The notes: a model not told the origin generated them from the sequence alone. Positions 1-9,539 are shown, numbered from the stretch's first letter. The stretch is 64,000 nucleotides of DNA from Thermoanaerobaculia bacterium (GCA_963821225.1 CAWGCY010000004.1:401595-465594); one strand, 5' to 3'. A program made the numbers and translations.

Positions 1-83
1 TGGGCATGTACACCTTCAGCAAGCGTCGCGACGAGGTCGCGGCGAAAGAGGGCGATGGAAGGCAGGAGGAACGCCATGTCTGA
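1..83 (+). CDS. 3' end of an upstream CDS (partial), possibly the partner subunit of the NrfD-like protein. Function not determinable from 27 residues.
   Basis: Open frame from window edge ending ...GMYTFSKRRDEVAAKEGDGRQEERHV with TGA at 81-83, overlapping the ATG of the next gene (ATGTCTGA). Translational coupling implies the same operon. Confidence 0.3.
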   Translation, partial: GMYTFSKRRDEVAAKEGDGRQEERHV

Positions 84-1305
84 AAACGCCCTGAAACCCG
101 CGCTCTTCGGCGGCCCGTGGATGCGGGAAAACCTCTTCCTCGGGATGACCTTCCGCGAGTACGTCAAGAGCCTCGTGACGCCGGTCAATGCGATCGCGAC
201 GGCGATCCTCCTCGTGGGACTTCCCACGATTGCGTACCGGTTCTGGAGAGGCCTCGGCGCCGCCACGAACCTGTCGCAGACGAACGCATGGGGCATCTGG
301 GTCGCCTTCGACGTCGTGTGCGGCGTCGCGCTCGCGGCGGGCGGCTACACGGTCGCCTGCGCGGTCTACATCTTCGGCCAGAAAGCGCTGCGGCCGATCC
401 TCCGCCCCGCGATTCTGACCGGGTTCCTCGGTTACGCGCTCGTCCTCCTCGGACTCGTCGTGGACCTCGGCCAGCCGTGGCGGCTGCCCTACCAGTTCTT
501 CCTGACGCCCGGCACGACGGCCGTCATGTACGAGGTCGGCTGGTGCGTCTTTCTGTATCTGATGGTGCTCGGGCTCGAGTTCGCGCCCGCGGCGCTCGAG
601 TGGCTCGGCCTCGTCAAGCTGCGCCGGCTCCTCGGGTCGCTGACGATCGGCATCATCGTCGTCGGGGTCACGCTCTCGACGCTCCACCAGTCCTCGCTCG
701 GCGCCTTCTTCCTCATGACGCCGGGCAAGCTGCACCCGCTCTGGTACTCGTCGTTCCTGCCGGTCTTCTTCTTCGTATCGAGTCTCGCGGCGGGTATCGG
801 CATGGTGGTCGTGGAGAGCGCGCTTTCCCACCGCGCGTTCCACGACCGGCTCGATCCGGCCGCTGCCGTGGACCTCGACCGCATCACGCTTTCCCTCGCG
901 AAGGGCGGCGCGATCGTCCTGTTCGCTTACTTCTTCATCCGACTGCAGGGCCTCGTGCAGGGCGGCCGTTTCGACCTCCTCGCGACCGGCTGGGGCGCCT
1001 GGTATCTCCTCGAGATGCTCGGCTTCGTCCTCCTGCCGTCGCTCATGTTCGCCTTCGCGGCGCGGCGAAAGAGCGCGAGGCTGGCCCGGATCGCCGGCGT
1101 CCTCACGGTCCTCGGCGTGATCCTCAACCGCTTCAACGTCTCGCTCATCGCCTTCAACTGGAACGTTCCGGACCGCTACGTTCCGAGCGTCGCCGAGATC
1201 GTCACGTCGCTCACGATCGTGACGATCGGCGTCCTGATCTTCCGCTGGATCGTGAATCGCATGCCGGTGGTGAACGAGCATCCCGACTGGCGCGGCGCCC
1301 ACTGA
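76..1305 (+). CDS. NrfD/PsrC-family polytopic membrane subunit (quinone-interacting subunit of CISM-type complexes)
   Basis: GGAGG RBS 8 nt upstream of ATG at 76 (the track ORF starts at 55). ~410 aa with about 8-10 predicted TM helices rich in G/A/L/V/W/Y, typical NrfD/PsrC/HybB topology. Coupled to upstream partial CDS. Confidence 0.6.
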   Translation: MSENALKPALFGGPWMRENLFLGMTFREYVKSLVTPVNAIATAILLVGLPTIAYRFWRGLGAATNLSQTNAWGIWVAFDVVCGVALAAGGYTVACAVYIFGQKALRPILRPAILTGFLGYALVLLGLVVDLGQPWRLPYQFFLTPGTTAVMYEVGWCVFLYLMVLGLEFAPAALEWLGLVKLRRLLGSLTIGIIVVGVTLSTLHQSSLGAFFLMTPGKLHPLWYSSFLPVFFFVSSLAAGIGMVVVESALSHRAFHDRLDPAAAVDLDRITLSLAKGGAIVLFAYFFIRLQGLVQGGRFDLLATGWGAWYLLEMLGFVLLPSLMFAFAARRKSARLARIAGVLTVLGVILNRFNVSLIAFNWNVPDRYVPSVAEIVTSLTIVTIGVLIFRWIVNRMPVVNEHPDWRGAH

Positions 1306-1323
1306 GAGGGGAGAAAAAGAGCC

Positions 1324-1992
1324 ATGAACGAAACCGAACTTCTCAGCCCTTACACCGCGAAGGCCGTCGAATACGTCCTCGCGATCTCGTACCTCCTCCT
1401 CTTCATCCCCTTCTGGCGCTTCGTCCAGGGGGAGGCGGTTCCGGCGCACGCCCTCGGCTTCGGCTGGTTCCAGGTCCCGAACGGCGTCCATCTCCATGCC
1501 GGCCACGCCTGGGCGCGCCCGGAAGGCGGTGCGGTGGAGGTCGGCCTCGACGACTTTGCCCACAAGCTCGTGGGCCCGCTCGAGGCGGTGCGCTTTCCCG
1601 AGATCGGCGCGCCGGTGCGCCAGGGCCAGAAAGCCTTCACGATCGTGGCCGGCGGCCAGCCGCTCGACGTGCTCTCCCCGGTGGACGGCCACGTCGTCGC
1701 GTTGAACGAGGCCATTCGCGCGCATCCGGCCGAGGCGCTGCGCGATCCGTACGGCGCCGGGTGGCTCATGAAGGTCGAGCCGCGCTGGCTGACCGGCAAC
1801 CTCAAGAACCTGTTCTCGGGAGACGCGGCCCGCCGATTCCTCGACGCCGCGGCGGGAAAGCTGGCCCAACGCCTCACGCCGCAACTCGGAGTCGTCCTGC
1901 AGGACGGCGGAACGCCGGTGCACGGCATCGCGCGAGCTCTCGACGAGGACCACTGGGACGAGCTGGCCCGGCGGTTCCTCGAGGGAAAGTGA
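1324..1992 (+). CDS. Membrane-anchored glycine-cleavage H-protein-like (GcvH-fold) protein lacking the lipoyl-lysine
   Basis: N-terminal TM helix, then HAWARPEGGAVEVGLDDFAHKLVG...PEIGAPV...LSPVDGHVVALNEAI...DPYGAGWLMKV, matching the GcvH signature (HxW..vGitdfAq.lG...PevG...sPvsGevvevN...PY..GWl.k). The position aligned to the lipoyl-Lys (ESVKA) is Gly. Confidence 0.55.
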   Translation: MNETELLSPYTAKAVEYVLAISYLLLFIPFWRFVQGEAVPAHALGFGWFQVPNGVHLHAGHAWARPEGGAVEVGLDDFAHKLVGPLEAVRFPEIGAPVRQGQKAFTIVAGGQPLDVLSPVDGHVVALNEAIRAHPAEALRDPYGAGWLMKVEPRWLTGNLKNLFSGDAARRFLDAAAGKLAQRLTPQLGVVLQDGGTPVHGIARALDEDHWDELARRFLEGK

Positions 1993-2002
1993 GGCGGCCG
2001 TC

Positions 2003-2353
2003 ATGAGACATCTCCGACTCATCGTTGTCCTCCTGACGCTCGGGCTGGCCGGGGCGGTTCTCGCGGCCGGTCTCGCCCGCCTTCCGAACGACCGCGCGCT
2101 CCCGCAGGGAACGGACAGCCCGGGCGTCGTGACGTTCCGACACTCGTCGCACGTCGACGTGGCGAAGCCCGACTGCACGACCTGCCATCCGGCGCTGTTC
2201 CCGATCCTCCGCCGTTCCGACGCCCTGGCGGCCCCCCGACTCAATCACAAGGACATGGAGAAAGGCGTCGCCTGCGGCAAGTGCCACGACGGCAAGAGCG
2301 CGCATGGATTCGATGATTGCGCCACCTGCCACGCCGTTCCGAAAGAGAGGTGA
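2003..2353 (+). CDS. Small membrane-anchored tri-heme c-type cytochrome (cytochrome c3/DsrJ-like)
   Basis: Signal/anchor helix then three CXXCH motifs (CTTCH, CGKCH, CATCH) in 116 aa. Sits between the two GcvH-like genes. Confidence 0.7.
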   Translation: MRHLRLIVVLLTLGLAGAVLAAGLARLPNDRALPQGTDSPGVVTFRHSSHVDVAKPDCTTCHPALFPILRRSDALAAPRLNHKDMEKGVACGKCHDGKSAHGFDDCATCHAVPKER

Positions 2354-2358
2354 GCACC

Positions 2359-3069
2359 ATGGAAGCTCTCCTGACGTTCCTCGAGGGTACCGTCATCTTC
2401 GTGGCGGGCCTCATCATCCGCCTTCTCCTTCTCATCGCGTTCGTGGCCGCCGCCCTCCTGCCCATCCTCGCCGGGTGGGGCGTCTACCGCCTGGCCGAGC
2501 GGACGATCCGGCGCCTCAGGGCGCGCCAGCTCGGCCTCGTGGACGTCGACGGCCTCGTTCTCGCGGAGCGCCGCCGTTACACGCCCGCCCACGCCTGGCT
2601 GGAAGAGAAAGGCGGCCGCCTGCGGGTGGGTCTCGACGGTCTCGCCGGACACCTCCTTCACGGCGTCACCGCCGTACAGCTTCCGCAGCCTGGAAGCATG
2701 CTGGCCGCCGGGCGCGTGGCCGTGACGGTCGCGTGTGGCGCGCGGACGGCGGTCATCCCCTCGCCCGTGACGGGCACGGTGGTGGCCGTGAACAGCGCCG
2801 TGCGCCGCCGCCCTTCTCTGGTCGAGTCCTCGCCTTACGGGAGAGGCTGGCTCTTCTCGGTGCGGCCTGCCTCCGACACGTATCGCAGCTTCCCGACGGG
2901 TGCGAAGGCGCGCGCCTGGTTCCACGCCGACGAGACGCGGCTCGCGCATTTCCTCGAAGGCGAGCTCGGCCTCGCGGCGGCGGACGGCGGCGAGCTGGTC
3001 CTGCCTCCTCCGGCCCTGCTTTCCGAGGATCAATGGCACCGGGCGGTGTCCAACTTCCTCGAGTCCTGA
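2359..3069 (+). CDS. Second membrane-anchored GcvH-fold protein lacking lipoyl-lysine
   Basis: RBS GAGAGG before ATG at 2359 (MEALLTFLEG). Two N-terminal TM helices, then AHAWLEEKGGRLRVGLDGLAGHLLHGV...SPVTGTVVAVNSAV...SPYGRGWLFSV, the GcvH pattern with no Lys at the lipoylation position. Confidence 0.55.
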   Translation: MEALLTFLEGTVIFVAGLIIRLLLLIAFVAAALLPILAGWGVYRLAERTIRRLRARQLGLVDVDGLVLAERRRYTPAHAWLEEKGGRLRVGLDGLAGHLLHGVTAVQLPQPGSMLAAGRVAVTVACGARTAVIPSPVTGTVVAVNSAVRRRPSLVESSPYGRGWLFSVRPASDTYRSFPTGAKARAWFHADETRLAHFLEGELGLAAADGGELVLPPPALLSEDQWHRAVSNFLES

Positions 3070-3096
3070 CTGCCCCTACGGCGCGGTTCCCCGCCA

Positions 3097-3140
3097 AGGC
3101 CGCCCCTCCGGGGGCGGCCTTCTTCTGTCAAGATCGGAGC
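3097..3140 (+). terminator. Rho-independent terminator after the NrfD/GcvH-like/cytochrome operon
   Basis: Perfect 11-bp stem AAGGCCGCCCC-TCC-GGGGCGGCCTT followed by CTTCTGTC, directly after the stop at 3069. Confidence 0.5.
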
Positions 3141-3159: not shown

Positions 3160-3999
3160 ATGCGCCGATCCGTCCTCGTCGTCGCGCTCGTCCTTCTCGC
3201 GGGTTGCGCGAAGAAGCCCGCCGCTCCCGCCGCCGCTTCGAGTCCGGCTGCGGTGATCCCTCAGGCCCCTCAGCCCGCTCTCGCCACGGTATCGGGAGTC
3301 GTCGAAGAGACGCTCGACGCCTCCGACTACACGTACATGCGCCTTGAAACCTCCGGCGGCGAGATCTGGGCCGCCGTCACGAAGACCTCCGTGAAGAAGG
3401 GCGACCAGGTCACGGTCGTAAACGCGATGTCGATGGACGGCTTCGAAAGCAGGACGCTGAACCGGAAGTTCGATCACATCGTGTTCGGCATGATCGGCGG
3501 CGGAACGGCCGGCGCTCTGCCCCAGGGCGCGCCCCCGGGACTGGTATCGGCGCACGGCTCCGCCTCGGAACCTCCTCAGCCCGCCCAGATGGCCGCGCAA
3601 CACGCCGCGGTTGCGGGCGGCCCGGCGGAGACCGGTGACGTCGCGGTCGCGAAGGCCGAAGGCAAGGACGCGCGCACCGTGGCGCAGGTCTTCGCGGAGC
3701 GCCTTTCGCTGAAGGACAAGATCGTGTCCGTGCGGGGCAAGGTCGTGAAGGCGAACTCCTCGATCATGGGCCGGACCTGGATTCACATTCGCGACGGCTC
3801 GGGTTCACGCGAAAAGAAGGACGACGACCTGACGGTGACGACCCAGGACAGCGCGGCCGTCGGCGACATCGTGGTCGTAAGGGGCGTCGTTCACGTCGAC
3901 CGCGATTTCGGCGCCGGCTACGCGTACCCGGCCGTCCTGGAGGACGCGAAGGTCACGCGCGAGCCGGCCTCGACGCGAGCGGACGCGACACGTCGGTGA
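3160..3999 (+). CDS. Lipoprotein with two tandem OB-fold (BOF/YgiW-like) domains
   Basis: AGGAGA RBS. Signal peptide with lipobox LLAGC. Two internal repeats ([30 protein letters not shown]...GDQVTVV and [28 protein letters not shown]...[10 protein letters not shown]) resembling the YgiW/BOF OB-fold. Confidence 0.45.
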
Positions 4000-5888
4000 T
4001 TCCGCTCGGGGCCGACCTCGCCGGCTATCAGGGACAGCCCGGCTCTTTCGGCGCCCGCGCGGCGGCGCGCTGCGGGAAGCCGGTAGCCTTCCCCACCTTC
4101 GAGCGCACGCTGCGTGCGCTCCTCGCCGGCGAGATCGGGTGCGCCGTGCTGCCCGCGGTCAACCGCGTGGACGGGCCGATCCTCGAGTCCCTGGATGCGC
4201 TCGCCCGCTCGCTCCTGGAGCCGGAATCCGCGATCGCCGTCGGGGCCGAGATCGAAGTGCCCGTGAGGCTCGTTCTTGCTGCGCCGGAGGGCCTCGCCCT
4301 GGAGGCCGTGCGCGAGGTCCATTCCCAGGCCGCGGTGCTCAGGCAGTGCCGCCATCTTCTCGCGCGCCTCGACGCGATCGGGATCGACACGCACGACACG
4401 GCGTACGCGGCCTTTCGCGTGAAGGAAGCCGGAGGGCCTCGAGCAGCCGTCTGCTCGGAGGAGGCGGCGCTCGAGGCCGGCCTGCTCATCCTCGAGGAGG
4501 ACGTCTCGGACGTCCGTCCGAACACGACGCGATTCTGGAAGCTCGTCCTCGCCGGCACGACGGCGGATGCCGTTCCGGCGGACGATGCCGCGCCTGACGC
4601 CCCCGCGCCGCGCGTGGTCTTCTACGCCGGCGTCCGGGCGTCTTCCGCGTTGGCGGAAGCCGGCGCCGAACTCCTCTCGCTGCCGGGCACGCCGGCCGAT
4701 CCGGTTCGCGGCTTCGCGGTCGTGCCCGAGAAGAACGTGACGCGGGCCTCGGCGGGCACGGGCAGGCCCGCAGCGGGCGAGCGCGTGATCTGGCTCGGGC
4801 CCGCCCCGGAGTTCGTGCGTCCTCCGCGGATGCGCGACATCCCGAGAGTGACGGAGGTGCGCGATCCGAGCGTCGTCGCCGTGGGGCCTTTCGTCGTCGG
4901 CGGAGGGCACCGCGCGGTGATCGCGGGTCCGTGCGCGGTCGAATCGCCCGAGCAGGTCGCGCGTCTGGCGCGCGCGGTCGCGCGCGCCGGCGCGACCGCG
5001 CTCCGCGGCGGCGTCTTCAAACCGCGCACGTCCCCCTATTCGTTCCAGGGACACGGCCTCGAAGCTCTCGGCTGGCTTAAGGATGCGGGAGACGCTGCGG
5101 GGCTTCCCATCGTGACGGAAGTGATGGCCCCCGCGCAGGTCGGCCCGGTGGCCGAGCGGGCCGACGTGCTGCAGATCGGCGCCCGGAACTGCCAGAACTA
5201 CGACCTCCTCAAGGAAGCGGGCAGAAGCCCCCGCCCCGTCTTCCTGAAACGCGGGTTCGGAACGACCGTCGAGGAGTGGCTCTCCTCGGCCGAGTACCTC
5301 CTCGACGCGGGCTGCAAGGACGTGATCCTCTGCGAGCGGGGCATCCGCACGTTCGAAAAGGCGACGCGGGGGACGCTCGATCTCGGCGGCCTCCTCGCGG
5401 CGCGCAGTCTCACGCATCTCCCGCTCTTCGCCGACCCCTCGCATGCCGCGGGCCGGCGCGACCTCGTGCCGGGCCTCGCACGCGCGGCGTGGGGCGCGGG
5501 CGTGGACGGACTCATGATCGAGGTCCACGATGCCCCCGAATCCGCGCTCTCCGACGGGCCACAGGCTCTCTTGCCCGAGGACCTCGAGGAGCTGCTTGAC
5601 GAATTCGGCATCCTGCCGGGCATGAGCGGCTCGGTGGAGAGGATCCGGCGCGCGATCGACGTCGTCGACGGCGGCATCGCACGGCTTGCCGCGCAGAGAC
5701 TGGAGCTCGCACGGCGCGTGGGCGCCGTCAAGAAAGCTTCCGGCCGCCCGATTCGCGACGAGGCGCGCGAGGCGAGCGTGCGTGCGCGTTTCGCCGAGGC
5801 GCTTGGAGGTGACACGCCGGCCGCGATGCGGCTCGTGGACACGCTCATCGACCTCGCTCTGGAAGCGGAGAAGCCCGGCGACGCGTGA
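3996..5888 (+). CDS. Tri-domain fusion: prephenate dehydratase (PDT) + DAHP synthase (3-deoxy-7-phosphoheptulonate synthase, class I-beta) + AroQ chorismate mutase
   Basis: N-terminal region has PDT motifs (ESLDAL...[13 protein letters not shown]...TRFWKL). The middle has the DAHPS/KDO8PS-like TIM barrel ([10 protein letters not shown]...[17 protein letters not shown]...[13 protein letters not shown]). The C-terminus has an AroQ chorismate mutase helix bundle ([31 protein letters not shown]...). Start overlaps the stop of the lipoprotein gene (GTGA). Confidence 0.75.
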
Positions 5889-7389: not shown

Positions 7390-9539
7390 CCACGGTTCTC
7401 CACGGCCGGGACGCTTTCGAGCGCCTTCATGCCGGCCTCGGCGGCTTTGCGGGCGTCGCTTCCCGGCGCCGCGTTTCTCAGGATTTCCTCGTAGAGGCGA
7501 CGCGCGTCCGAGAGGCGACCCGCGGTTCCGTAGAGCGCCGCGAGGCCGAGACGCGCCTGGTCCGCCTGTGAGGACCCCGGGGCCTTGAGGAGGATCTCCT
7601 CGTAGAGCGTCGTCGCGCGGAGCGCGTTCTTGGCCTTGTCGGCGCCGCGCGCGAGCCGGAGGGTGGCCCTGACTCTCACGTCCGGGTCGCTTGCGCGCGC
7701 CGCTTCCTCGAACGAGCGCTCGGCGGCGTCGTCTTGCCCGAGCGTCTCGAGGACGTCGCCCTTCTTCAGCAAGGCCTCTCCGCGCGAGGCCGGGATCTCG
7801 ATCAGCGCCTCGAGGGCCTTGAGTGCGCGCGATTTGTCCTGCGTCTTGACGGCGAGGTCGGCGATCGTCGAAAGGAGGACGGCGCGCGACTCGGTCTGCG
7901 CCATCTTGGAGGCGGCATCCTCGTAGAACGTGAGGGCGGCAGGGACGCTCTCGCGTTCGAGGAGCGCCCCGCGCTCCAGGACGCGCTCGAGCGTGACGTC
8001 TCCTCCGGCCGGGCGGACGGGGGCGGCGGCGGCCGGCGCCGCCGCGGGAGCCGGCCGCCTCTCTCCCGAAGGGAGGCGCGGAGCCCGCTTCGCCCACCAG
8101 GCGCCGAGCCCGGCGAGCGCGGCGACGACGAGGGTCGCCGCGATCAGGCCGGTGCGGTTCGTCTCCTCGCGCGGGATGGAAGGGACCGTGCGCGGCGTCC
8201 CGCCCGCGGCGAGAGGCACGGCGCGCGTCGCGAATCCGGGTGTCGGCTCGCTGCTCGAAAGAAGCGAGGCGATCTGACCTTGCGTGTACGGGTCTGGCGG
8301 CGCGAGGGCCTGGAGCTTTCGGAAAAAGCGCATGAGGTTCAGGAAGTCGTGTTCGAGGCGGTAGAGCTTCGCGAGCTGCAGGAGGAGGGCGAGGTTGTCG
8401 GGATCCTTTTTCAGCGCCTCCTCGAGCTCGCGGATGCGCGCGTTGTCGAGCGGCTTCTCACGCTGCCCGGCGCGCACGGCCGCGGTGCGCAGGAGCGTCT
8501 GCGCGGCCGGGTCGTCCGGCGTGCAGGCGACCGTCCGGTACGCCGCCCAGAGCGCCTCCTCGGGGCGCGCGTTCGCGTCCTGAAGCAGGCGTTCGGCGGC
8601 AGCGGTGGACTCTTTGGCGAGCAGCCGATTGCGTTCGGCGACGAAGGCGGCGGGGTTCTCGAGGAACGTCCGGAAGTGGATTCCCGGCCGCGTAGAGCCC
8701 TCCTTCTGATAAAGCGTGTCCAGGGCATCGCACGCGGCGTTCGCGCTCGCGAAGCGACGAGAACGGTCCTTCGCATGGAGCTTTCTGAGAAACGTGTCGA
8801 CGGACGGAGGAATCGACGGATCTAGAAGAGACGGCAGGTCGGGCTCGGCGTCCGCGACGCGGCGGAGGGAGGACGCGATGGAGTCGGCCGTGAACGGGTT
8901 GTACCCGCAGAGGAGCTCGTAAAGGACGGTCCCCATCGAGAAGAGGTCGGTCCTCGGGTCCAGCTCCTCTCCCCGCGCCTGCTCGGGCGACATGTGCGCG
9001 GGCGTGCCCACAACGGTTCCCGTGTGCGTGAGGCGCGTGAGGTGCGCGGCATGGCTGATCCCGAAGTCGCCGATCTTCACGCACCCTTCGCGCGTCCACA
9101 TGATGTTCTGCGGCTTGATGTCGCGGTGAATGACGCCCTTCGCGTGAGCCGCGGCGAGCCCGGTGAGGGCCTCCCGGGTGACGAAGAGCGCGATCTCCCA
9201 CGGGAAGCGGCCGCACTGCTTCCGGAGACCGTTCAGCTCGCCGCCATCCACGTATTCCATGACGATGTACGCCTGTTCCGGCGTGGGGCTGCAGTCCACG
9301 AGCTCGACGATGTTCGGGTGCTTGAGGGAGATCTGGATCCGGATCTCGTGGAAGAAGCGGTCGAGGAAGTCGGGATCCGTGGCGATGTGCGGCAGGATCT
9401 TCTTGAGCGCGACCGTCCGGCCGGATTTCTCGTCAACGGCCTCGAAGATCTCCGCCATGCCGCCGAGCGCGATCCGACGCACGATCCGGTAGTGGTCGAT
9501 GCGCTCGAGAGGATGCGACGGACGCGACTCAGGGGACAT
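7386..9539 (-). CDS. Serine/threonine protein kinase with TM segment and C-terminal TPR repeats
   Basis: Hanks kinase subdomains: GGMAEIFEA...[28 protein letters not shown]. Followed by a hydrophobic segment and TPR-like repeats. Confidence 0.8.

Follow-up and report, generated by a model that had tools for sequence, protein, structure and literature searches.

The stretch of DNA analyzed here, referred to as the window, comprises 64,000 nucleotides (nt) from a Thermoanaerobaculia bacterium (GCA_963821225.1 CAWGCY010000004.1:401595-465594) and opens with five closely spaced genes on the plus strand (positions 1–3140; G+C content, 69%), the first of which is partial. An iron-sulfur (FeS) protein, a membrane protein of the NrfD family, and a small triheme cytochrome c are encoded here together with two membrane-anchored proteins that resemble GcvH, the H protein of the glycine cleavage system (Table 1). 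The NrfD-type respiratory module is itself of a known kind; what is new is the undescribed GcvH-like component, predicted to be cytoplasmic, and the regulatory gene set that accompanies the module in related genomes.

Table 1. Features in the first 3140 nt of the window
Feature	Position	Strand	Evidence or remark
HmcB/HybA-type FeS protein gene, 3′ end (last 26 codons)	3..83	+	frame 3, TGA at 81–83
NrfD-family polytopic membrane protein, HmcC/HybB-like, 409 aa, ten predicted helices	76..1305	+	NrfD, HmcC, and HybB profiles
GcvH-like protein 1, 222 aa	1324..1992	+	GCV_H, E 1e-17
Triheme c7-type cytochrome, 116 aa, N-terminal signal or anchor sequence	2003..2353	+	Cytochrome_C7, E 4.8e-13
GcvH-like protein 2, 236 aa	2359..3069	+	GCV_H, E 6.5e-19
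Terminator-like hairpin, 11-bp GC stem, UCCG loop, then CUUCUGUC	3096..3121	+	RNA fold

A first-pass annotation of the same sequence had described these genes as one tightly packed unit whose partial first member is translationally coupled to the next, and all of the parts that it named are present. The end of the partial coding sequence (CDS) overlaps the start of the NrfD gene (ATG at 76–78; ATGTCTGA), and the spacers between the four full-length genes measure 18, 10, and 5 nt, as expected for a single operon. The strong terminator proposed at its end is seen in part: the GC stem is there, and the RNA fold of positions 3066–3140 has an energy of −38.3 kcal/mol (z = −2.7), but the hairpin is not called by a simple consensus terminator scanner because its U-tract is weak. 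The closest public relative of the locus, L003, is 92% identical to the window at the DNA level across 3.2 kb.

The FeS, NrfD, and cytochrome c7 subunits

The nature of the gene that enters the window from upstream, which the first-pass annotation had singled out for inspection, is revealed by L003, where 25 of the 26 residues of the partial CDS match the C terminus of an FeS protein. The orthologue of this protein in locus L001 matches HmcB (343 bits, E 1e-102; cutoff, 420), HybA (247 bits; cutoff, 263), and Fer4_11 (E 2e-19), and it displays a twin-arginine translocation (Tat)-like NRRTLFK motif, four cysteine clusters of the [4Fe-4S] type, and a C-terminal anchor. These motifs and profiles give strong support to reading the partial CDS as the tail of an HmcB/HybA-type protein with four [4Fe-4S] clusters that is exported by the Tat pathway and anchored at its C terminus.

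The 409-residue protein matches Pfam NrfD (PF03916) at 61.9 bits (cutoff, 25.8; E 1e-16) over model positions 3–304 of 313, in agreement with its earlier assignment to this family, and its hydropathy profile resolves ten hydrophobic segments. Among the NCBIfam models, HmcC scores highest (505.5 bits, E 1e-151; cutoff, 550), and HybB reaches 269 bits (cutoff, 450); a comparison of the sequence with the PDB returned no match at E ≤ 0.01. Polytopic and encoded beside a Tat-exported multicluster FeS partner, the protein has the hallmarks of the NrfD/PsrC family and is the presumed quinone-interacting subunit. There is strong support from these sequence features for the two proteins forming the standard quinone-interacting pair, with the FeS subunit and a ten-helix, cofactor-less NrfD subunit facing the periplasm.

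The 116-residue cytochrome has three CXXCH motifs (CTTCH, CGKCH, and CATCH) and scores above cutoff with both Cytochrome_C7 (PF14522; 49.2 bits against 24.8) and TIGR04257 (64.2 bits against 40), features that identify it as a triheme c7 cytochrome of the PpcA type and bear out the multiheme assignment made previously. Its best solved relative is the c7-domain cytochrome GSU1996 of Geobacter (3ov0; E 5e-26). Its gene lies between the two GcvH-like genes, and its assignment as the periplasmic redox partner of the module is strongly supported. No second open reading frame (ORF) with at least two CXXCH motifs is found anywhere in window positions 1–64000.

The GcvH-like proteins and their orientation

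The two GcvH-like proteins are paralogues that share 36% identity across 160 residues. Both exceed the GCV_H threshold (Table 1), consistent with the fold that had been assigned to them, and both fall below equivalog level for the H protein itself, at 58.2 bits (protein 1) and 56.9 bits (protein 2) against a cutoff of 115.85 for TIGR00527 and at 71.9 and 72.4 bits, respectively, against a cutoff of 117 for NF002270. Hydropathy analysis reveals a single N-terminal hydrophobic helix in each. Protein 1 starts with a short acidic N-tail, followed by a conserved transmembrane (TM) helix (residues 9–34), a lysine-less barrel (residues 55–155, approximately), and, in the predicted model, a helical C-terminal extension (residues 156–219) that carries an invariant DGG...W motif. 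Protein 2 has a TM helix, then RLAERTIRRLRARQ, a lysine-less GcvH barrel, and a C-terminal extension of the same type. An exact-sequence look-up of the GcvH-like protein of the window returned no match, and close relatives stood in for it in later comparisons.

In the alignment column of the lipoyl-bearing Lys65 of Escherichia coli GcvH, protein 1 has a glycine and protein 2 an alanine. The loss of the lipoyl-lysine, noted before for the window, extends to the family: none of 122 aligned members has a lysine in this column, in which G, E, D, A, or S is found instead. The residue one position downstream is K, R, or Q, with lysine in 54 of the 122 homologues, and lipoylation at this neighboring site was considered and rejected, as the window proteins have Q or R there. 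Conservation is highest in the DGG loop of the extension (0.81) and in the TM helix (0.74), intermediate in the barrel (0.66), and lowest in the former lipoyl hairpin (0.43). With the lysine gone, the proteins cannot carry lipoate, and with the hairpin least conserved and the TM helix and DGG loop most conserved, the classical H-protein function has been lost and selection acts on other parts of the proteins. Public records nonetheless name the relatives “glycine cleavage system protein H,” a label that, judged from these sequences, is a misleading and recurrent misannotation of this family.

The side of the membrane on which the GcvH-like domain resides is indicated by charge and by natural gene fusions. 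The N-tails are short, acidic, and free of positive charges, and the flank that follows the helix, which in protein 2 is RLAERTIRRLRARQ, is rich in arginine and lysine. An exhaustive profile search with the GcvH-like family uncovered two proteins (P0272 and P0296) composed of a signal peptide, a tetraheme cytochrome c, the conserved TM helix, and a GcvH-like domain, and a third (P0235) in which a TM helix and a GcvH-like domain are followed by an arginine-rich stretch, a second TM helix, and a c7 cytochrome. Cytochromes of the c type mature in the periplasm, and these layouts, which put the cytochrome there, leave the GcvH-like domain on the opposite side. In other members, the TM helix is replaced: by a receiver domain joined to the GcvH-like domain (P0280), or by one of two kinds of four-cysteine (4-Cys) domain (L053, L055, L075, L081, L044, L078, and P0341), the 4-Cys domain being fused to the GcvH-like domain in L053, L055, and L075. 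Neither kind of cysteine-rich N-terminal domain matches Pfam. Members from Desulfobaccales lack the helix and have nothing in its place, and no signal peptide is found in any of the soluble, receiver-fused, or 4-Cys-fused forms. Taken together, the charge bias, the cytochrome fusions, and the receiver and 4-Cys fusions make it very probable that the GcvH-like domains face the cytoplasm rather than the periplasm.

The presence of the helix also follows that of the NrfD gene: 96 of the 107 TM-anchored forms occur in NrfD-containing loci. Where FeS and NrfD genes are missing outside Anaeromyxobacter, the Desulfobaccales and Desulfobacterales copies are helix-less, and the copies of one Latescibacterota locus (L062, on a contig with assembly gaps) keep the TM anchor. 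Across the family, the N-terminal modules seem to be interchangeable and include a TM helix, a cytochrome with a TM helix, a receiver, and the two 4-Cys kinds.

The search also returned a metagenomic protein of 1391 residues (P0262) in which three tandem lysine-less GCV_H domains are combined with an FAD-linked oxidase, a 4Fe-4S dicluster domain, and two CCG domains. It offers a second setting for an H-protein fold that has lost its lysine and is linked to a redox enzyme; its GCV_H domains match the barrel only and are without the family-specific extension.

Gene neighborhood and regulation in relatives

The recurrence of NrfD genes beside lysine-less GCV_H genes, for which the first-pass annotation had called for a neighborhood search, is extensive. 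At least 517 loci carry a relative in a scan of one genome per species, and the profile search gave 841 protein clusters at 50% identity (E ≤ 1e-30). The gene cluster is found in Acidobacteriota (several classes), Anaeromyxobacter, Methylomirabilis, Planctomycetota, Eisenbacteria, Hyphomicrobiales, Deferrimicrobiaceae, Bacteroidota, Riflebacteria, Latescibacterota, and Desulfobacterota. The unit proves to be larger than the genes first listed, which stand as described: in relatives, it also contains a small 4-Cys protein, the complete FeS gene, a sigma-54 promoter, and genes for a kinase, an archaemetzincin, and an activator. A related Thermoanaerobaculia contig and Anaeromyxobacter sp. K share one gene order: a HAMP histidine kinase, an M54 archaemetzincin, a sigma-54 response regulator, a small protein of 72–79 residues, FeS, NrfD, GcvH-like, c7, and GcvH-like.

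Components were counted in the 44 loci that span 15 kb or more. Of these, 33 have the FeS and NrfD genes, and 34 have the set of kinase, activator, and M54 peptidase; the small 4-Cys protein is found in 21, as is the c7 cytochrome, for which the number is a lower bound as small divergent cytochromes may be missed. The commonest copy number of the GcvH-like gene is two. The c7 cytochrome is an accessory to the module, and the GcvH-like genes are its constant element. The small protein, with strong support a cytoplasmic one, is encoded first in the operon and in some lineages is fused to a GcvH-like domain. It has four conserved cysteines, has no match in Pfam or NCBIfam, and has homologues that are all named “hypothetical”; its AlphaFold model has a predicted local distance difference test score (pLDDT) of 57. 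The M54 protein of L001, which lies outside the window, scores 145.4 bits with NF033823 (cutoff, 145) and E 8.7e-18 with PF07998, and its sequence HELGHTFGLLH retains an intact HEXXHXXGXXH motif together with the Cys4 pattern C..C...C..C, as is characteristic of archaemetzincins.

Alignment of the intergenic regions revealed a TGGC-N7-TTGC element, with the −24/−12 spacing of sigma-54 promoters, and a relaxed pattern then located further copies across the loci. In nearly all loci, the element directly precedes the first gene of the operon, and it is conserved in L001–L048 and others, L003 included. It is absent from all 64,000 nt of the window itself, and its expected position is upstream of the window start. 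The adjacent activator has a clear Sigma54_activat domain (E 5.6e-70), so that the relatives have both the −24/−12 element and the neighboring enhancer-binding protein of a sigma-54-dependent operon. In the periplasmic sensor domain of the kinase, a CXXCH motif is present in 42 of 43 orthologues and a CX4CH motif in all 43, which suggests a diheme-c redox or gas sensor.

Several further features of these loci were observed. The −12 element lies only ~20 nt upstream of the start codon of the small gene, which points to a near-leaderless transcript. In L001 (7377–7540) and its orthologues, a conserved palindrome, CAACG-CCC-CGTTG, follows immediately on the activator stop codon, and a conserved TTGACACC box is present as well, both upstream of the sigma-54 element. 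Extra TM-anchored GcvH-like paralogues are found at ~7780–8730 in Anaeromyxobacter and relatives (L024, L027, L034, L035, L037, and L039), each with its own TGGC-N7-TTGC element ~200 nt upstream and with unrelated neighbors, namely a LysR regulator and, on the opposite strand, a molybdopterin oxidoreductase. In L002 (12442–14204) and in the Anaeromyxobacter loci L025–L048, genes for a CbcA-like multiheme cytochrome and a CbcB-like diheme cytochrome b lie ~550 nt past the operon; beyond these come genes for an M48/M56 peptidase and a second two-component system.

The metagenomic locus L083 (1–10299) has an operon of different composition, in which NrfD is followed by a TM-GcvH-like, a receiver-GcvH-like, and a 4-Cys-GcvH-like protein, MTHFR, a 221-aa membrane protein, a small FeS protein, a c3/c7 cytochrome, and a DUF5981 (MetV-like) protein, with M54, activator, and kinase on the opposite strand. 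The link to folate metabolism that MTHFR suggests was rejected, as the gene occurs in only 1 of 83 loci.

Comparison with known systems and interpretation

The first-pass annotation had likened the module to DsrJ/DsrP-, Qrc-, or ACIII-like complexes, a kinship that is not supported. The components fall far below equivalog level for DsrMKJOP (DsrP, 29.7 bits against 350; DsrO, 87.7 against 200) and for Qrc (QrcD, 102.7 against 570; QrcC, 66 against 400; QrcA, 24 against 180), and the nearest relatives by sequence are instead HmcC and HmcB of the Desulfovibrio Hmc complex, followed by HybB and HybA. Hmc and its reduced forms Nhc and Ohc contain cytochromes of 16, 9, or 8 hemes. The module shares with these complexes the combination of a periplasmic multiheme cytochrome c, a C-terminally anchored FeS protein exported by Tat, and a subunit of the NrfD type, but it has a three-heme c7 in place of the larger cytochromes and, unlike Hmc, Nhc, and Ohc, includes a 4-Cys protein and two GcvH-fold subunits. 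The HmcC and HmcB scores remain under the equivalog cutoffs, no gene for HmcA (16-heme), HmcD, HmcE, or HmcF is found within 10 kb in L001 or L002, and the module occurs in Acidobacteriota and Myxococcota, not in sulfate reducers. E. coli hydrogenase-2 likewise has homologous FeS (HybA) and membrane (HybB) subunits, although here, too, the scores are under the cutoffs, the partner is a c-type cytochrome, and the clusters contain no hydrogenase structural or maturation genes, [NiFe] subunits included.

The overall architecture and presumed role of the module are also reminiscent, judged from the published description, of Cbc4 (CbcSTU) of Geobacter sulfurreducens, a quinone-cytochrome c oxidoreductase composed of a membrane-anchored cytochrome c, a 4x[4Fe-4S] protein, and an integral membrane subunit (10.1101/2025.04.14.648717). 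The two differ in that CbcS is a NapC/NirT-type tetraheme cytochrome, whereas the module has a c7, and in that no GcvH-like or 4-Cys subunits are reported for Cbc4, a comparison made by description only. In its sigma-54-dependent control of an inner-membrane quinone oxidoreductase, the system resembles BccR/CbcBA of Geobacter, and the Anaeromyxobacter operon sits between the sigma-54 activator and the CbcA/CbcB-like genes, which fits the remark of Joshi et al. that CbcBA homologues occur near BccR-like sigma-54 regulators in Anaeromyxobacter (10.1101/2021.04.15.440034). The Geobacter cbcBA operon, however, is described as encoding two hypothetical proteins, a response regulator, CbcB, and CbcA, with no mention of NrfD, FeS, or GcvH-like proteins (10.1101/2021.04.15.440034); in the organism of the window, no CbcBA genes follow downstream, and the activator is likened to BccR by context only.

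The GcvH-like proteins discussed in the literature that we searched are only the lipoylated LbpA of sHdr sulfur oxidation (PMC6067878) and the lipoylated GcvH-L of Streptococcus and Staphylococcus. In contrast to these and to GcvH, the window proteins are without the lipoyl-lysine, have their lowest conservation in the hairpin, are tethered to the membrane, carry an additional ~65-residue helical extension with the DGG...W motif, score under the TIGR00527 cutoff (58 against 115.85), and have no glycine-cleavage or lipoate-ligase genes near them. The barrel-sandwich-hybrid (lipoyl-like) domains of NqrA and RnfC are related to them distantly and by fold only; those domains belong to large soluble subunits of an unrelated type of complex rather than to single-pass proteins. 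No description of such a system emerged from full-text searches for GcvH or glycine cleavage in combination with NrfD, polysulfide reductase, cytochrome c7, Anaeromyxobacter, archaemetzincin, or sigma-54, in keeping with the initial impression that no described complex pairs NrfD with GcvH-fold proteins.

From these comparisons, the FeS, NrfD, and c7 proteins probably constitute a quinone:cytochrome module. This could be a quinol:cytochrome c oxidoreductase of the Nhc or Cbc4 kind in minimal form, exchanging electrons, in one direction or the other, between the menaquinone pool and periplasmic cytochrome c. Positions 1–3140 would then cover all but the first sixth of a sigma-54-dependent operon, the product of which is a small membrane-bound respiratory module switched on by the periplasmic redox state. 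Its two single-pass GcvH-like proteins very probably each present a lysine-less GcvH-fold domain and a conserved helical extension on the cytoplasmic face; these domains, presumably noncatalytic, might form with the 4-Cys protein a cytoplasmic adaptor or regulatory hub that is held on the NrfD module by the conserved TM helices. We give a slight preference to this overall reading, in which a quinone:cytochrome c module under redox regulation has a new GcvH-fold adaptor or regulatory hub on its cytoplasmic side, the role of the hub being the inferred part of the reading. That the GcvH-like proteins are physical subunits of the assembly is somewhat more likely, because they are fused to cytochromes, their TM anchoring tracks NrfD, their helix is conserved, and their genes are translationally packed with those of the module; that their role is specifically that of an adaptor or regulator is a tentative suggestion.

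Several observations weigh against this reading. Every component is known here from its sequence, and the contact between the GcvH-like helix and NrfD is deduced solely from synteny, fusions, and helix conservation. GcvH-like genes accompany the kinase, activator, and M54 genes without FeS-NrfD in Desulfobaccales, Desulfobacterales, and the one Latescibacterota contig, and stand-alone sigma-54-driven GcvH-like paralogues occur in Anaeromyxobacter. As the GcvH-like protein occurs without FeS-NrfD, it may be tied to the regulatory set and not to the redox module. The NrfD subunit has no cofactor able to pass electrons toward the cytoplasm, which leaves the hub without an obvious redox role, and the upstream genes and the promoter, which lie outside the window, are observed in relatives only, with L003 as the closest.

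One alternative follows directly from these points, namely that the GcvH-like proteins serve the circuit of kinase, sigma-54 activator, and archaemetzincin as its primary effectors or feedback elements, for example as partners or substrates of the protease or as modulators of the kinase or activator, with FeS-NrfD-c7 as co-regulated cargo inserted into the same operon in many lineages. The only constant sigma-54 target is a GcvH-like gene; a lone GcvH-like gene stands opposite M54-activator-kinase in Desulfobaccales, two cysteine-rich GcvH-like fusions are found in the Desulfobacterales locus L081, and the monocistronic Anaeromyxobacter paralogues and the receiver fusion P0280 point the same way. 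This alternative is nevertheless unlikely in our judgment, if not strongly so, as the cytochrome fusions P0272, P0296, and P0235 place the TM-GcvH unit inside an electron-transfer assembly, TM anchoring goes with the presence of NrfD, and the GcvH-like genes are translationally packed between NrfD and c7. It is also compatible with the GcvH-like proteins being subunits; the two are not mutually exclusive.

Two other explanations fare less well. The proposal of the first-pass annotation, in which a complex of the DsrJ/DsrP, Qrc, or ACIII kind has the GcvH-like barrels as its structural or carrier domains in the periplasm, is in line with the N-terminal hydrophobic helix on each protein and with an operon shared with a periplasmic cytochrome and a Tat-exported FeS protein. 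It is contradicted by the lack of positive charge ahead of the helix and the arginine-rich flank behind it, by the cytochrome-TM-GcvH and TM-GcvH-TM-c7 fusions, which fit only a cytoplasmic domain, by the lack of signal peptides on the soluble, receiver-fused, and 4-Cys-fused versions, and by the low DsrP and QrcD scores, and we consider it highly improbable. Little more probable is a hub that docks cytoplasmic redox enzymes on the NrfD module, so that cytoplasmic metabolism would be connected across the membrane to the quinone/cytochrome pool, as in the Hmc, Tmc, and Dsr complexes. Such docking would account for L083, in which MTHFR, DUF5981, the small FeS protein, and the membrane protein are encoded co-directionally past NrfD and three GcvH-like genes, as well as for the domain composition of P0262, and HmcC, the nearest relative of the NrfD subunit, is part of a transmembrane complex. 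However, the MTHFR association is confined to the single locus, the window operon and its orthologues encode neither a cytoplasmic oxidoreductase nor a heme-b subunit, and the P0262 domains lack the extension that defines the family.

Returning to the reading of the GcvH-like proteins as a cytoplasmic element of the respiratory module, NrfD-type modules are a common quinone-coupling unit of anaerobic respiration, whose accessory subunits set partners and energy conservation, and the version described here is widespread among Acidobacteriota of soil and sediment, Anaeromyxobacter, and several candidate phyla. A fold whose only known role is that of a lipoyl carrier would here have been added to such a module without its lysine, and working out its role would define a new subtype of respiratory complex, give the GcvH fold a new non-carrier function, and possibly provide the first physiological context for bacterial archaemetzincins. 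A more speculative proposal, which we regard as rather doubtful, is that the lysine-less GcvH-fold domain with its DGG...W extension is an unrecognized cytoplasmic adaptor or signaling domain, a hub on the NrfD module that couples the state of the module to the circuit of diheme-sensor kinase, sigma-54 activator, and archaemetzincin, or that gates the module post-translationally. If true, this coupling or gating would amount to a new principle for regulating a respiratory complex.

Downstream of the module, the hairpin is followed directly on the plus strand by a gene for a 279-aa lipoprotein (3160–3999) with an LAGC lipobox. The protein has no match in Pfam or NCBIfam, and its gene is found at the same position in all Thermoanaerobaculia loci and not in other phyla. 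The next ORF, also on the plus strand (3996–5888), encodes 630 residues; in its L001 orthologue, domains of three enzymes of aromatic amino-acid metabolism (prephenate dehydratase, DAHP synthase, and chorismate mutase) occur in a single protein, which is an unusual three-way fusion.

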